From sequence record PQ349265.1: a stretch of DNA of 64,000 bases; one strand, 5' to 3'. The notes under the pieces are model-generated. The model had not been told where the DNA came from. It was given only the letters and a program-made list of their open reading frames with translations, and ran no database searches. This document shows positions 2,987-57,143 of the stretch, in pieces. The stretch is from Escherichia phage CJY920. How positions within the stretch are numbered: position 1 is the stretch's first letter; each line of letters opens with the position of its first letter. Made by a program: the position numbers and the translations under genes.

Positions 2987-3229
2987 ATGCATATTGTTTT
3001 ATTTAAACCTACTCCGTATAATGTCAGGAAAAATACTCAATTCAAAGCACTTATTGCAGATACGTGGGAATTGGTGTTAGATATTCCAGCAGAAGAAAGT
3101 CCTCCATTTGGTCGAGTGGAATTTATTAAGTTTGCTGTGCGCCCTACGAAGCGACAGATTCGCCAATGCAAAAGATACTTTCGTAAAATAGTCAAGTTAG
3201 AGAAACAGTTATTGATGCTAGTAAAATAG
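2987..3229 (+). CDS. hypothetical protein (61.4 position)
   Basis: ORF with ATG directly after previous stop; basic C-terminus. Confidence 0.4.
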   Translation: MHIVLFKPTPYNVRKNTQFKALIADTWELVLDIPAEESPPFGRVEFIKFAVRPTKRQIRQCKRYFRKIVKLEKQLLMLVK

Positions 3230-3231
3230 TA

Positions 3232-3262
3232 GTTTACAAGCTGATAGAGTTGTGTTATAGTA
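3232..3262 (+). promoter_or_regulatory. early promoter
   Basis: gtttacaagctgatagagttgtgttatagt. Confidence 0.45.
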
Positions 3263-3292
3263 ATTCTATCAGCTAATCGCGGAGAAAAGAAA

Positions 3293-3547
3293 ATGATGCT
3301 AGTTAATAGAGAATATCAGTTTAAATCAGAAGAAGATTTGGAAAAATTCGCAAGTGGTTGTGAACTGAATAGACGCACAGCTAAAGTCATAGGATTAAAA
3401 CCCTTTACAGTTCTAGATTGTGAAGTTTCTAAATTCCGCAGAGGGTGTTCTATTAGCGGTCATGCTCTGGTTGATGGGAACACATTTTTCTTTGTTTTTA
3501 GCGTCAGAGAACTTTTATTGATTAACGAACTTGAGGAAATAAAATAG
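3293..3547 (+). CDS. hypothetical protein
   Basis: 84-aa ORF between promoter and next promoter. Confidence 0.4.
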   Translation: MMLVNREYQFKSEEDLEKFASGCELNRRTAKVIGLKPFTVLDCEVSKFRRGCSISGHALVDGNTFFFVFSVRELLLINELEEIK

Positions 3548-48797: not shown

Positions 48798-50738
<1,941 letters not shown>

Positions 50739-50761: not shown

Positions 50762-51007
50762 ATGATTTTACGATTTAAAGATACTTCTGGTGTCGTTCTT
50801 TTTACACTTCCTAATCCAAGTGAGTTAGAAGTTCCAGGACCAAATCAGCCTATTATCATTTATGGCAAAAAATATTATACTCATAAAATGACTCGTGAGT
50901 ATTTTGATAATAAAATTTCTACGGTTAAAACTTCTTCAGATTGTTATTATGATATTACTGTTTTAACGGAAAAACAATATGACGAATGCAGAACTTTAGC
51001 AGTATAA
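50762..51007 (+). CDS. hypothetical protein, 81 aa
   Basis: ORF from table. Confidence 0.45.
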
Positions 51008-51727
51008 ATATGATTCCCAGCAATCTAGAGCGCATCTTTTAGATATAAGTTTTCTGCTTATTCCGGTTTGACGCACAGCTTCTGCTATTGTTGGATATTC
51101 TACCCCATCTATACTTACTCTTAGATGGGGTTTCTTTTTACCTCTTTGTGAGTCAGAAATTCGTTTTCTAACTTCATTGGTATGTGTCTGTCCATAATAT
51201 GGATTATTGATGCCTTTCATATTAAGTGCAGCGTTTCTTTCTTGGAACTTTTTGCTTATTTCTATAGCACGATCTAACCCATAGTGTTCTTCTATAGTTT
51301 TACCTTTGATATCTCTAGGTCTACCATGTTTTTGCTTAAGTTCTTCTGGTGATAATTTTGAATTATTATTTTTAATTGCATTTGAAATTTTATTAAGGAT
51401 TTCTTGCTTTCTTGGGTGATGAGATAAGGTATCCCCAAATGATGCGTCTGCTATATTATACCCATTTTCCTTTGAGTCATATTCATGCATCCAATAATTT
51501 TCACGTTCAATAATGATAGATTTTTCGTATGGAAGTTCTTCTATGATTTTACATACGAAAGCATCTTTCCCATGCTTATTATAAGAACGCTGCAGCTTTA
51601 TTGAATGATGATTTCCATTATCTAAATCTTTAAAGTGTCGTTTCCATCGTTCTTCAAAATTAATTGCACTTCCTATATAGTGCTTATTAGTTTTAGTGTT
51701 TATAATAGCATATATTCCAGATTTCAT
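50996..51727 (-). CDS. freestanding GIY-YIG homing endonuclease, I-TevI-like, 243 aa, opposite strand
   Basis: N-terminus [21 protein letters not shown]...RWKRHFKDL; NUMOD3-like [17 protein letters not shown]; C-terminal HTH-like region. Confidence 0.8.
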
Positions 51728-51749: not shown

Positions 51750-51757
51750 TATTTATA
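51750..51757 (-). promoter_or_regulatory. late promoter TATAAATA for the GIY-YIG gene
   Basis: + strand tatttata ~25 nt upstream of the - strand ATG. Confidence 0.45.
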
Positions 51758-51782: not shown

Positions 51783-54047
51783 ATGCAATTAATTAATGTT
51801 ATCAAAAGTAGTGGTGTTTCTCAGAGCTTTGACCCGCAAAAAATTATTAAAGTTTTATCTTGGGCAGCTGAAGGAACATCTGTAGATCCTTATGAATTAT
51901 ATGAAAATATTAAATCATATCTCCGTGATGGAATGACAACTGATGACATTCAAACCATTGTAATTAAGGCTGCTGCGAATTCTATTTCAGTTGAAGAGCC
52001 TGATTATCAATACGTAGCTGCACGCTGTTTAATGTTTGCTCTTCGTAAACACGTGTACGGACAGTATGAGCCCCGTTCATTTATTGACCATATTTCTTAC
52101 TGTGTAAATGAAGGTAAATACGACCCTGAACTGTTGTCAAAATATTCAGCAGAAGAAATTACATTTTTAGAATCAAAAATTAAGCACGAACGGGATATGG
52201 AATTTACTTATTCCGGGGCGATGCAATTAAAAGAAAAATATCTCGTTAAAGATAAAACCACTGGTCAAATTTATGAAACTCCACAGTTTGCATTTATGAC
52301 TATTGGAATGGCATTGCATCAAGATGAACCTGTTGACAGATTAAAACATGTTATTCGTTTTTATGAAGCAGTATCTACTCGACAGATTTCATTGCCAACT
52401 CCTATTATGGCTGGTTGTCGTACTCCGACTCGGCAATTTAGTTCATGCGTTGTTATTGAGGCAGGTGATTCGCTGAAGTCTATCAACAAAGCTTCTGCTT
52501 CAATTGTTGAGTATATTTCTAAACGAGCCGGAATCGGCATTAACGTTGGTATGATTCGTGCCGAAGGTTCTAAGATTGGCACAGGTGAAGTACGCCATAC
52601 TGGTGTTATTCCTTTTTGGAAACATTTTCAGACTGCTGTTAAATCATGCTCACAGGGTGGAATTCGTGGCGGCGCTGCTACTGCTTATTATCCTATTTGG
52701 CATTTGGAAGTTGAAAATCTTCTCGTTTTGAAAAATAACAAAGGCGTAGAAGAAAACCGTATCCGTCATATGGATTATGGTGTCCAGCTGAATGATTTGA
52801 TGATGGAACGTTTTGGAAAGAACGATTACATTACTTTGTTTAGTCCACATGAAATGGGTGGCGAACTTTATTATTCTTATTTTAAAGACCAAGACCGTTT
52901 CCGTGAATTATACGAAGCTGCAGAAAAAGACCCTAATATTCGTAAAAAGCGCATTAAAGCCCGTGAACTGTTTGAATTGCTCATGACTGAACGCTCAGGA
53001 ACAGCAAGGATTTATGTACAGTTCATTGATAATACGAATAACTATACTCCATTTATTCGTGAAAAGGCACCTATTCGTCAGAGTAACTTGTGCTGTGAAA
53101 TTGCTATTCCAACAAATGATGTGAATGGACCTGACGCTGAAGTGGGCCTCTGCACTCTTTCTGCCTTTGTTCTTGATAACTTCGATTGGCAAGACCAAGA
53201 TAAAATTAATGAATTAGCAGAAGTCCAAGTTCGCGCTCTTGATAATCTTTTGGATTACCAAGGATATCCAGTTCCTGAAGCAGAAAAAGCTAAAAAGCGT
53301 CGAAATCTTGGTGTAGGTGTTACTAACTATGCAGCTTGGCTGGCAAGTAACTTTGCTTCTTATGAAGATGCTAACGATTTAACACATGAACTATTTGAGA
53401 GATTACAGTATGGGCTCATTAAAGCATCCATTAAGCTCGCCAAAGAAAAAGGACCTTGCGAATATTATTCAGACACTCGTTGGTCTCGAGACGAATTACC
53501 TATCGACTGGTACAATAAAAAGATTGACCAAATCGCAGCTCCAAAATACGTTTGTGACTGGTCGTCGCTGCGGGAAGACCTTAAGCTCTTTGGCATCCGT
53601 AATAGCACATTATCAGCACTTATGCCATGTGAGTCATCTTCCCAAGTTTCTAACAGTACAAACGGTATCGAGCCTCCACGTGGACCAGTCTCGGTTAAAG
53701 AATCAAAAGAGGGTTCCTTTAATCAAGTCGTGCCCAATATTGAACATAACATAGACCTCTATGATTATACATGGAAATTAGCTAAGAAAGGTAATAAACC
53801 TTATCTTACGCAGGTAGCTATTATGCTTAAATGGGTATGTCAATCAGCTTCAGCGAATACATATTATGACCCGCAGATTTTTCCAAAAGGAAAGGTTCCA
53901 ATGTCTGTAATGATTGATGACATGCTATACGGATGGTATTATGGCATTAAAAACTTCTATTATCATAATACTCGTGATGGTTCCGGTACTGATGATTACG
54001 AAATAGAAACTCCAAAAGCTGAAGATTGTTCATCCTGTAAATTATGA
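51783..54047 (+). CDS. nrdA: NrdA ribonucleotide reductase large subunit, 754 aa
   Basis: ATP-cone N-terminus, class I RNR catalytic motifs; SD GAGGA before ATG at 51783. Confidence 0.93.
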   Translation: MQLINVIKSSGVSQSFDPQKIIKVLSWAAEGTSVDPYELYENIKSYLRDGMTTDDIQTIVIKAAANSISVEEPDYQYVAARCLMFALRKHVYGQYEPRSFIDHISYCVNEGKYDPELLSKYSAEEITFLESKIKHERDMEFTYSGAMQLKEKYLVKDKTTGQIYETPQFAFMTIGMALHQDEPVDRLKHVIRFYEAVSTRQISLPTPIMAGCRTPTRQFSSCVVIEAGDSLKSINKASASIVEYISKRAGIGINVGMIRAEGSKIGTGEVRHTGVIPFWKHFQTAVKSCSQGGIRGGAATAYYPIWHLEVENLLVLKNNKGVEENRIRHMDYGVQLNDLMMERFGKNDYITLFSPHEMGGELYYSYFKDQDRFRELYEAAEKDPNIRKKRIKARELFELLMTERSGTARIYVQFIDNTNNYTPFIREKAPIRQSNLCCEIAIPTNDVNGPDAEVGLCTLSAFVLDNFDWQDQDKINELAEVQVRALDNLLDYQGYPVPEAEKAKKRRNLGVGVTNYAAWLASNFASYEDANDLTHELFERLQYGLIKASIKLAKEKGPCEYYSDTRWSRDELPIDWYNKKIDQIAAPKYVCDWSSLREDLKLFGIRNSTLSALMPCESSSQVSNSTNGIEPPRGPVSVKESKEGSFNQVVPNIEHNIDLYDYTWKLAKKGNKPYLTQVAIMLKWVCQSASANTYYDPQIFPKGKVPMSVMIDDMLYGWYYGIKNFYYHNTRDGSGTDDYEIETPKAEDCSSCKL

Positions 54048-54087
54048 TATAATTACCACAAGGATGTGGTTAACTAAGAATAACGCT

Positions 54088-55656
54088 ATGTTTGATAATA
54101 TATACAAAAACGGAAAGTTTCTTCCATTTGGAGAAGAAAAACTTAAATCTAGACTAACAGAAGAAGATAAAGCTCTTCTAACTGATGGAATAGATTTTAA
54201 GCTCAATGTGTTCCAAATTATGGAAGGCATTGACATTAACGATCTAAAATGTGCAGTTTGTGGAAATTTCATTTCTCTGAAAACAGCAAAGAAACGTGTA
54301 TTTCCAGCAACATGTAGTAAATCCTGCTCAGGGATATTTTTCGCGGATAAGAGAATTCAAAGCCGTGATACAAATTTTGGCGGAAAAGAAAAATATAAAA
54401 AATATTTGTCTGAACTTCAACACAAAAATTCTTTAGAAAAATATGGAACAACTCATCAAAAAATTTCAAGAAATAAAAATAGAAAAACTTTAATTGAACG
54501 ATATGGGGTAACGCATAATTCACAATTAGAAAGTGTGAAAGAAGCGAGAAAAGTTATAGAAAACGGTAAATCAGTTGATATTCTGAATTCTAAAAAATCT
54601 CGCGAAAAATCTAAGAAGACTAAATTAAATTGGACTGAAGAATATAAGGCATCGTTATATTCATCTATAGGAAAATCTATTAAAAATAACGGTCATATTA
54701 ATCATGATATACTAGATAAAATCAATTACAAAATTTCTATAGAAGAACTACAACAATTAGCAAATTGTTCTCGGATGACGGCTTATAGAGCTCTTTCATC
54801 CAAAGGACTAATTGACGTTCATTATACTCAAAGTTCTATAGAGCAATTCATTTTAGATCTAGGATTTGATTGCGTAGAAACTAGAAAAATTATTCCTCCG
54901 TATGAATTAGATATTTACATTCCTGAGAAAAAATTGGCTATAGAATACGATGGAATTTATTGGCATTCTAGCGGGTCAAAGGAAACAGATAAAATTAAAG
55001 AAACTTATCATTTGATGAAGACAGAGATGTGTGAAGCACAAGGAATTCAATTACTTCACATCTTCGAAAATGAATGGATTGATGATACAAAAAGAGAGAT
55101 CTGGAAATCCATTATAAAGCATAAATTAGGATTATCAGAAAGAATACCAGCCCGAAAATGCAAAGCACGGTTTGTTAATAAGGATGAGGCAAAAGAATTT
55201 ATTAATAAGAATCATCTTCAAGGATTTTGCTCAGGAGCTCATACGTATAAAGGACTTTATTACAATAATGAGTTAGTTCAAATTATTTCTATCGGTAAAT
55301 CTAGATATAGCTCAGGTGATGAACTTTTAAGGATGTGTTCAAAATTAGGGGTTTGTGTTGTAGGAGGAGCCTCAAAATTATTAAAAGGAATTAATTGTCT
55401 ATCTTATGGCAATCGAAGATGGTGCAGTACATTATCAAATGTTTATGACTCTGTCATGGAATTTAGTCATATCTCTGAGCCATGTTATTGGTACGTCGAT
55501 AAAGGAGAGGTATTTCACCGCTCAAGCTATATGAAACATAAGCTTAAAAACAAGCTTAAAAATTATGATGATACAATAACTGAAGTAGAAAATTGTTATG
55601 CAAATGGTCTTAGAAGAATCTGGGACTGTGGAAATTTAGTTTACAGGACAAAATAA
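54088..55656 (+). CDS. putative freestanding homing-type endonuclease (Zn finger + HTH + Vsr/PD-(D/E)xK-like motif), about 522-530 aa
   Basis: CAVCGN...CSKSC; HTH-like SIEELQQLANCSRMTAYRAL; KLAIEYDGIYWHS motif; start may be 54064. Confidence 0.55.
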   Translation: MFDNIYKNGKFLPFGEEKLKSRLTEEDKALLTDGIDFKLNVFQIMEGIDINDLKCAVCGNFISLKTAKKRVFPATCSKSCSGIFFADKRIQSRDTNFGGKEKYKKYLSELQHKNSLEKYGTTHQKISRNKNRKTLIERYGVTHNSQLESVKEARKVIENGKSVDILNSKKSREKSKKTKLNWTEEYKASLYSSIGKSIKNNGHINHDILDKINYKISIEELQQLANCSRMTAYRALSSKGLIDVHYTQSSIEQFILDLGFDCVETRKIIPPYELDIYIPEKKLAIEYDGIYWHSSGSKETDKIKETYHLMKTEMCEAQGIQLLHIFENEWIDDTKREIWKSIIKHKLGLSERIPARKCKARFVNKDEAKEFINKNHLQGFCSGAHTYKGLYYNNELVQIISIGKSRYSSGDELLRMCSKLGVCVVGGASKLLKGINCLSYGNRRWCSTLSNVYDSVMEFSHISEPCYWYVDKGEVFHRSSYMKHKLKNKLKNYDDTITEVENCYANGLRRIWDCGNLVYRTK

Positions 55657-57143
55657 TGAGTACAGTTTTTAATACTAAACAGGTCGATGTTTTAAAAGAA
55701 CCTATGTTTTTTGGTTCAGGTCTTGGTATTGCGCGTTATGATATTCAACGGCATCGAGTATTTGAAGAACTTATTGAACGTTCGCTCTCGTTTTTCTGGC
55801 GTCCGGAAGAAGTAAACTTGATGATGGATGCTGCACAGTTTAATAAGCTTCCTCAGTATCAACAAAATATTTTTACTAATAATCTGAAGTATCAATCATT
55901 ACTTGATAGTATTCAAGGTCGTGCGCCGTCTGCTGTACTTATGCCATTGCTTTCAGACCCAAGCCTTGATACATGGGTTGCTACATGGACTTTTAGTGAA
56001 ACTATTCACAGTCGTTCATATACTCATATCATGCGAAATCTTTATACTGATCCATCGAAGGTATTTGATGAGATTGTACTAGATGAAGCTATCATGAAAC
56101 GTGCTGAATCTATCGGTCGCTATTATGATGATGTTCTGACTAAAACCCGTGAATGGGAAAATGCTAAAGAATTTACAGAACTAGCTAAAGAATCTCCTGA
56201 TGCTGTTTTTCGTTTAAATCGAGCTATTAAACAAGAAGCCGAAGCTAAACGTGCTTTAATGAAATCTCTTTACCTCTGTTTGCATGTTATCAACGCATTG
56301 GAAGCTATTCGTTTTTATGTATCTTTCGCGTAAAATGCGCCTTTAAGCAGTAATGCTTATCGAAAACTCCTTTAATTGCTGGAAAATCCAGAAATGGAAA
56401 ACTAGCAGCCAAGGTTTTGCTTGCACCTTTAATTAGTATCATATTATAAATATGATTATACTTTTAAGAGGATGCACAATTGCAAAGCAAGGTTCAACGA
56501 CTAGTCTTCGGACGTAGGGTCAAGCGACTCGAAATGGGGAGAATCCCTCTGGGATTGTGATATAGTCTGGTCTGCATAGTAATATGTAGCAGTTCATAAG
56601 AGAACGGGTTGAGAATTAGCGAGCTCAATCGAACATAACGGTACCTTTAACTTCCATAAGAACATGGAAATCATGGAAGGTAATGCCAAGATTATGAAGT
56701 TCATTGCTCGTGATGAACAGCTTCACCTTAAGGGTACCCAATATATTATTCGTCAACTTCAATCCGGTACTGATGGTGATGAATGGGTTAAAATTGCTCA
56801 AGAGTGTGAACAAGAAGCAGTTGATATTTTCATGGAAGTTAACCGTCAAGAAAAAGACTGGGCAGTTCATTTATTTAAAGATGGTGATGTTCCTGGATTA
56901 AATACAAATAGCATGTGGAGCTTTATTGATTACTTAACTGTATCTCGTATGAAACAGTGTGGTCTTCCATGCCCAATTACCGATGCTCCGGTTAAACATC
57001 CATATCCTTGGATTCGTGAATACCTTAATTCTGATAATGTTCAATCCGCGCCACAAGAAGTAGAACTATCATCTTACCTTGTAGCACAGATTGATAATGA
57101 TGTTGATGATAAAGTTATGATGAGTTTTAAAAAATATTTTTAA
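55656..57143 (+). CDS. nrdB: NrdB ribonucleotide reductase small subunit, split: exon1 55656..56331, intron 56332..56640, exon2 56641..57143
   Basis: Junction ...FYVSFA-C-TFNFHKNMEIMEGNAK restores frame (U + GU = Cys codon). Confidence 0.9.
56332..56640 (+). ncRNA. group I self-splicing intron in nrdB, 309 nt, no internal ORF
   Basis: Core gtagggtcaagcgactcgaaa and 3' end aacataacg shared with the td intron. Confidence 0.8.

Follow-up and report, generated by a model that had tools for sequence, protein, structure and literature searches.

At the nrdA-nrdB junction of Escherichia phage CJY920, within the 64,000-nt stretch of record PQ349265.1 (hereafter, the window), a large open reading frame (ORF) lies directly ahead of an nrdB gene carrying an ORF-less group I intron, and this arrangement raises the question of what the large ORF encodes and whether its product takes part in the movement of the intron. 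A preliminary description had proposed a free-standing endonuclease engaged in intronless or collaborative homing, without recognising the protein. Judged by its sequence, the gene is hef, a free-standing homing endonuclease gene that is already known, and the observation is a rediscovery of a textbook case, Hef in place of mobE at the T-even nrdA-nrdB junction. We consider it highly probable that the locus as a whole is explained by hef at its usual site, a three-part protein, Hef-driven homing, and an intron that is carried along passively.

Identification of the nrdA-nrdB protein as Hef

The 530-aa ORF described for the gap between nrdA and nrdB is present at positions 54064–55656 on the plus strand. 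Its product shared 99.6% amino acid identity over 530 aa with Hef of phage U5 (ABI48935.1), so that the unrecognised protein is one that received its name, and was characterised, as early as 2005. The U5 record (AY262133.2, 4.2 kb) lists this gene as hef, with “homing endonuclease” as the product, and a tblastn search of GenBank phages detected the same protein at 99.1–99.6% identity in 16 records. PHROG 3339 (“homing endonuclease”) matched residues 7–529 of the window protein (E = 3e-151), and its AlphaFold2 (AF2) model had a mean predicted local distance difference test score (pLDDT) of 94.9. The NCBIfam search of the window protein gave no match, and none of its direct Pfam matches reached the gathering score. 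With the Hef identity and the nuclease fold described below, the proposal of a free-standing endonuclease at this position holds.

Hef was reportedly first described in the T-even phage U5 by Sandegren, Nord, and Sjoberg (Nucleic Acids Research, 2005), and in that study it is said to have cut the DNA of its own phage as well as hef-less DNA. Hef of U5 replaces mobE, and it is reported to cleave nrdB, to act site-specifically close to its own gene, and to give that gene super-Mendelian inheritance when infections are mixed (PMC2988022). The practical value of the identification lies in correct annotation, because many GenBank records still label hef “hypothetical protein”.

The gene content of the window is that of a T4-like (Tequatrovirus) phage. 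The order of genes at the locus is td (whose group I intron lacks an ORF), a short DUF5496 ORF, a minus-strand GIY-YIG ORF, nrdA, hef, nrdB exon 1, the 309-nt intron, nrdB exon 2, denA, and rnlA. The features of the nrdA-hef-nrdB segment, with the evidence for each, are as follows.

51783–54047 (+): nrdA, the large subunit of ribonucleotide reductase, forming the 5' flank of the hef insertion; an ORF whose start is the annotated nrdA start of phages LH2 and N2.
54064–55656 (+): hef, free-standing homing endonuclease gene, 530 aa, assigned by identity to U5 Hef, PHROG 3339, and the AF2 model; alternative start ATG at 54088.
54250–54327 (+): C4 zinc-ribbon-like motif (C63, C66, C84, C88), from Cys conservation and profile matches in a few homologues.
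54319–54813 (+): DUF7487-like helical repeat region with YG..Q repeats and a helix-turn-helix (HTH)-like segment at aa 222–246, from the DUF7487 matches of homologues and the AF2 model.
54823–55125 (+): Vsr-like/EDxHD nuclease domain, aa ~254–354 (D283, E294, D296, H301, H316, K319, T320).
55132–55653 (+): Mom-like GNAT-fold C-terminal domain, aa ~357–530 (H384, R423, S437, N450, R452, Y461).
55656–56331 (+): nrdB exon 1, matching Pfam Ribonuc_red_sm; spliced ORF intact.
56332–56640 (+): group I intron of nrdB, 309 nt long and without an ORF, matching Rfam RF00028, with boundaries checked against the intronless nrdB of N2.
56445–56482 (+): apparent remnant of the I-TevIII expression signals (TATAAATA, AAGAGGA) and ACAATTG deletion junction, seen when the window intron is aligned to those of T4 and LH2.
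56641–57143 (+): nrdB exon 2, matching Pfam Ribonuc_red_sm; spliced product checked.

The nrdA stop (54047) precedes the hef ORF by 16 nt, and the hef stop overlaps the start codon of nrdB (ATG, 55656). The ATG at 54064 has AAGG directly upstream with almost no spacing (region 54022–54090). The sequence TTAACTAAG, just 5' of the ATG at 54088 (M9 of the ORF), recurs in the spacer of the empty site of phage PD112.

hef as a mobile element

Comparison with related phages, which the preliminary description had called for, showed that hef is sporadic rather than universal among close relatives: of the 913 records matching the region, only 16 carried hef at an identity of at least 99%. When the window was compared with the loci of U5, LH2, SP21535, and N2, hef showed 0–2 mismatches per 100 nt in each comparison, and the nrdA and nrdB flanks formed mosaic blocks with up to 34 mismatches per 100 nt. 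The same site is occupied by hef in these five phages, is occupied by mobE and nrdB.1 in T4, and is empty in PD112, where a 43-nt spacer is found. The junctions of hef were clean, with shared sequence running through GATATAATT (which ends 7 nt past the nrdA stop) and resuming at the nrdB ATG. In these comparisons, hef behaves as a mobile element, being found in few records, nearly invariant, and set in mosaic flanks at a site with empty, mobE, and hef alleles.

Orthologues of Hef lie between nrdA and nrdB in the metagenomic contig P0003 (73% identity), Yersinia phage phiR1-RT (65%), the metagenomic contig P0005 (55%), and Acinetobacter phage Acj9 (50%). Because orthologues from other genera occupy the same position, the Hef lineage is tied to the site; more distant members of the family occupy other loci (tblastn; LIMEstone table).

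Two features of the alternative alleles were also recorded. The PD112 spacer that is replaced by hef (L004, positions 3363–3405) contains a hairpin-forming inverted repeat, GACTCatggacGAGTC. In T4, nrdB.1, which lies between mobE and nrdB (L005, positions 3162–3413), encodes a Cys-rich motif, CPHCGKK...WHYDKC, and resembles a detached MobE-like C-terminal piece.

The nuclease domain and the N-terminal region

The preliminary description had compared part of the protein with the Vsr/DUF559 signature of the PD-(D/E)xK superfamily, and the fold agrees with this comparison. In the AF2 model of the domain (pLDDT 85), the top Foldseek match was I-Bth0305I (3r3p), Vsr (1cw0, 1vsr) and the DUF559-like structure 3hrl came next, and the motif that had attracted attention, KLAIEYDGIYWHS (aa 290–302), is the catalytic core of the domain. 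Conservation was counted in an alignment of 90 homologues. D283 and H301, which correspond to D196 and H213 of I-Bth0305I, were invariant (90/90); the x position of EDxHD is N or D, with D296 in the window protein, and the last D of the motif (D309) is present in the window protein but in only 60 of the homologues. The profile search recovered MTES_1575 and DUF559 remotely, each below its gathering cut-off: in Pfam, the window protein scored 22.0 bits against the MTES_1575 restriction endonuclease (REase) model (cut-off 38.2, E = 1.7e-4) and 16.0 bits against DUF559 (cut-off 20.6, E = 0.011). MTES_1575 was matched at E < 0.01 by 57/90 homologues. The window protein therefore appears to be only a remote member of the Pfam DUF559/Vsr/MTES_1575 REase group. 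“Bacteriophage Hef type homing endonucleases” have already been placed in the Vsr-like EDxHD family by Taylor et al. in 2011 (PMC3239194).

Upstream of the nuclease, the C4-type zinc-finger-like motif noted earlier was confirmed, since C63, C66, C84, and C88 are each kept in at least 90% of the homologues; a few of these match Zn_ribbon_8, YacG, or zf-FCS. For the HTH-like segment (aa ~222–246), two short helices are present in the AF2 model, but HTH profile matches remained below threshold (HTH_11, E = 0.13). The whole region between the Cys motif and the nuclease is helical in the model, and DUF7487 matched 48/90 homologues, though not the window protein. Other members of the family have DUF723, DUF4379, or CapR modules instead of the DUF7487-type region. 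The zinc ribbon and the helical repeats are presumed to form a module for sequence-specific DNA binding and target recognition, and the replacement of the N-terminal module across the family fits a DNA-recognition module that can be swapped.

A Mom-like domain at the C terminus

The zinc-finger and nuclease parts of the earlier domain list stand, but a third domain had been missed. The C-terminal ~175 aa adopt a GNAT fold whose best match in the PDB was Mom of phage Mu (Foldseek, 8bv8, E = 1.4e-6), with the next GNAT match at E = 4e-3, and a comparison by hhalign of the Hef C-terminal domain (29 sequences) with the Mu Mom family (39 sequences) gave a probability of 92.4% (E = 5.3e-7). Pfam Mom (PF25680) did not match the window protein; it was matched at E < 0.01 by 22/90 homologues, in some cases above the cut-off of 27.1 (e.g., 30.1 bits in P0061 and 33.6 bits in P0065). 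A hidden Markov model (HMM) of the Mu-clade Mom proteins searched against the Hef sequences, and the reverse, gave only 12–20 bits. Because this narrow HMM is weak, the relationship to Mom is based on the broader Pfam model, the profile-profile comparison, and the structure.

Mom is a tRNA-dependent DNA adenine-modifying GNAT (an adenine aminoacyl-transferase). The residues reported to be essential or important for Mom (PMC13219725), including the essential set R111, S124, D149, and R151, were mapped onto Hef through the remote profile alignment and counted in the 90 homologues, with the following result.

Mom H58: Hef H384, 88/90.
Mom R111: Hef R423, 89/90.
Mom S124: Hef S437, 90/90.
Mom D149: Hef N450, N in 74 and D in 16 of 90.
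Mom R151: Hef R452, 90/90.
Mom Y159: Hef Y461, 89/90.
Mom Y59: Hef L385, which differs (Leu).

When a profile of the domain was searched against 1.84 billion cluster representatives (clusters at 50% identity), 18,781 proteins were matched at E ≤ 1e-3, of which 8,040 reached E ≤ 1e-30. The domain was C-terminal in almost all of the best 150 of the 18,781 matches, and these proteins were mostly 400–700 aa long. Some GenBank records name Hef relatives “nuclease/acetyltransferase”, and a search of the literature that was available, for Hef-like proteins with acetyltransferase and for Mom with Vsr and homing endonuclease, found no paper joining Hef to Mom. The Mom-family GNAT domain at the C terminus of Hef, which keeps most of the essential Mom residues, may thus be unreported.

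We are doubtful, without dismissing the idea, that the Mom-like domain is catalytically active, which would make these proteins putative bifunctional cut-and-modify enzymes. If it were, Hef-like enzymes might label the phage genome or the site that they target, or might recognise DNA via a base-flipping, tRNA-binding module. The domain poses the question, across a very large family of phage endonucleases, of whether it serves DNA modification, the binding of tRNA or of a flipped base, or nuclease dimerisation only.

A reading that goes further would make Hef a fused restriction-modification (R-M)-like enzyme, in which the Mom-like domain modifies adenines of the phage's own DNA or of the target site, the nuclease acts on DNA of competing phages or the host that lacks the modification, and “homing” is a by-product of exclusion. 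Such a role was predicted by Iyer et al. in 2021 for fusions of Mom domains to REase-fold nucleases in jumbo phages (PMC7824862). The placement of the Hef domain in the Mom family by structure and profile-profile comparison is in keeping with that role, as are its C-terminal position in proteins of similar size in nearly all of the best 150 matches and the retention of R423, S437, R452, Y461, and H384 in 88–90 of the 90 homologues. However, the counterparts of Mom D149 and Y59 are Asn and Leu, the window protein falls below the Pfam Mom model, and the scores of the Mu-clade HMMs are low. The reported cutting by Hef of DNA from its own phage speaks against self-protection. Furthermore, the defence-system models of PADLOC matched only the generic “HEase”, which lends no support to a known defence system, and the domain could instead be a scaffold for dimerisation or DNA binding. 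On balance, we regard the R-M-like role as unlikely, and we prefer to view Hef as a homing endonuclease with an additional Mom-like domain.

An nrdB intron without its ORF

The ORF-less group I intron of nrdB that had been placed at 56332–56640 (309 nt) was verified, and its boundaries are exact. Rfam RF00028 matched positions 56313–56589 with 71.7 bits (gathering score, 50), and the longest stop-free stretch within the intron was 48 codons. Removal of positions 56332–56640 gave an intact NrdB of 392 aa, with 3 residue differences relative to the NrdB of N2, whose gene is uninterrupted; since splicing at these boundaries restores NrdB, the coordinates are correct.

In alignment, the window intron corresponds to the T4/RB3-type nrdB intron minus the I-TevIII ORF. 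In T4, LH2, and U5, this ORF is bounded by two ACAATTG direct repeats, and the window intron lacks it exactly between these repeats. Two signals located ahead of the ORF in these three phages, the late-promoter-like TATAAATA (56445–56452) and AAGAGGA, are still present in the window intron. The position of the gap between the repeats, together with the retained signals, suggests that the I-TevIII ORF was lost by deletion and that the ORF-less form is not the ancestral state.

The two halves of the intron differ in their relationships. In the 5' half (56345–56400), ~10% of positions differ from the T4-type intron, and some of the changes look compensatory (AAGCA..TGCTT vs AAACG..CGTTT; UCCA..UGGA vs UCCU..AGGA). 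The best database match of this half reached only 96.6% (phage HY03), but RB3-type introns were 100% identical to the 3' half, and the intron is therefore a mosaic.

A difference between the window and T4 in the NrdB sequence just past the intron was considered and rejected, since T4 shares CTFNFHKNMEIMEGNAK. The divergent patches of nrdB exon 1 were considered as candidate target sites of the endonuclease, but the strongest of them (aa ~172–203) is simply a variable, indel-rich loop. Among phages that are otherwise ~95% identical, this loop (56170–56265) occurs in three unrelated versions, one in the window, N2, LH2, and PD112, one in T4, and one in U5. In the 5' patch of exon 1 (codons 8–44), the divergence is mostly synonymous, and the patch is not ascribed to Hef.

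Relationship between Hef and the nrdB intron

Phages carrying hef fall into four classes by their nrdB intron, which has a long ORF (U5, 1083 nt), has a truncated ORF (LH2 and others), has no ORF (the window and SP21535), or is absent (N2). Apart from this difference, N2 shares ~98% identity with the window, and its hef stands beside an intronless nrdB; nrdB was also intronless in all of the distant nrdA-nrdB Hef orthologues examined (phiR1-RT, Acj9, P0003, and P0005). Conversely, PD112 has the ORF-less intron together with neither hef nor mobE, and CE1 and BYEP01 match the intron in the same single-piece way. The occurrence of hef beside intronless nrdB genes indicates that Hef is independent of the intron.

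These distributions bear on the proposed mode of homing, of which the intronless form fits the data and the strict collaborative form does not. Under strict collaborative homing, Hef would target the insertion site of the intron and be paired with the ORF-less intron. Collaborative homing has precedents (PMC2790892), the arrangement of a free-standing homing endonuclease gene (HEG) directly 5' of a gene with an ORF-less intron is suggestive of it, and the nrdB intron occurred in 15/16 hef-bearing records as opposed to 113/489 other close relatives (odds ratio ~50, Fisher p = 8e-9, the records being non-independent). However, the intron insertion site lies 676 nt from the hef stop, and the occurrence of each element without the other, together with the four intron states beside hef, argues against such a pair; we consider this mode quite improbable.

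The association between hef and the intron is also the outcome expected from passive co-conversion, that is, homing of the intron in trans, and on the present analysis such carriage by Hef is plausible. In a mixed infection, Hef would cut the nrdB region of a co-infecting phage that lacks hef, as reported for U5 Hef, and the break would be repaired from the hef-bearing genome, so that hef and the adjacent sequence would be copied into the recipient. The nrdB intron, having lost its own endonuclease gene (I-TevIII), most likely rides in such Hef-initiated co-conversion tracts. This scheme is modelled on mobE and the nrdB intron of T4, where MobE mobilises the adjacent intron, which is itself defunct in homing (PMC2790892).

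Several points weigh against the explanation of the locus by Hef-driven homing with passive carriage of the intron. The association of hef with the intron may reflect shared ancestry instead of co-conversion. The start of hef is ambiguous between the ATG at 54064 and that at 54088; the alignment of Hef homologues begins only at residue 9, residues 1–5 have a pLDDT < 50 in the AF2 model, and 14 codons upstream, where the U5 record places the hef ATG, the window has AAG. A scan for promoters and terminators around hef found none above the shuffled expectation. Finally, the first E of the EDxHD motif has no clear alignment or conservation in Hef.

That hef is a decaying or domesticated relic whose product has ceased to cut DNA, as is the case for I-TevIII of T4, is extremely improbable: many phage HEGs are defunct, the neighbouring nrdB intron has lost its own HEG, and the upstream start codon of the U5 record is lost in the window, but the hef ORF is full length without a frameshift, differs little from the other copies, and has all of the family-invariant residues, with an AF2 model that is confident throughout.

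The window and its relatives provide a natural series of alleles, comprising hef next to an nrdB whose intron is full, truncated, ORF-less, or missing as well as the empty and mobE alleles, and this series lends itself to testing the distance over which Hef-initiated co-conversion could carry a non-autonomous intron.

The neighbouring td region

Two further features were noted upstream of nrdA. The td intron (50173–50426) is an ORF-less group I intron of 254 nt (Rfam, 75.7 bits), and the spliced td ORF is intact; the same intron carries I-TevI in T4 and LH2. Between td and nrdA, positions 50996–51727 on the minus strand encode a free-standing endonuclease of 243 aa with GIY-YIG, NUMOD3, and I-TevI DNA-binding domains, which shared 45% identity with I-TevI over its full length. 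Its ORF lies 23 nt downstream of the late-promoter-like TATAAATA at 51757–51750 (−), and it is found in the same place in N2, LH2, and phiR1-RT and is absent in T4 and PD112. The GIY-YIG ORF is thus a paralogue of I-TevI located outside the ORF-less td intron.

Comparison with known systems

The closest known system is Hef of U5, whose gene likewise takes the place of mobE in the nrdA-nrdB slot. The two loci differ in the nrdB intron, which is 1083 nt long with a long ORF in U5 and 309 nt long and ORF-less in the window, and in the flanks (nrdB exon 1 and the 3' part of nrdA), which diverge by up to 34 per 100 nt. mobE occupies this slot as well, and nrdB is listed as a gene cleaved by both MobE and Hef (PMC2988022). 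However, MobE is an HNH protein of 141 aa from a protein family unrelated to Hef, and mobilisation of the intron has been demonstrated for MobE, whereas for Hef we infer it.

Mom of phage Mu is a stand-alone protein, whereas the Mom-like domain of Hef is fused behind a nuclease, and the sequence similarity between them is remote; the alignment extends into Mom residues ~175–194, the site of a Mom-specific insertion. Mom forms a dimer (PMC13219725), and I-Bth0305I likewise requires dimerisation (PMC3239194). I-Bth0305I is the best match of the Hef nuclease domain in the PDB by both sequence and structure, its catalytic Asp and His align with those of Hef, and in both proteins a DNA-binding N-terminus is followed by the nuclease. 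I-Bth0305I is nevertheless an intron-encoded protein of 266 aa with NUMOD repeats, whereas Hef is free-standing, twice as long, and built from a zinc ribbon and DUF7487-type repeats, with an extra Mom-like domain after the nuclease.

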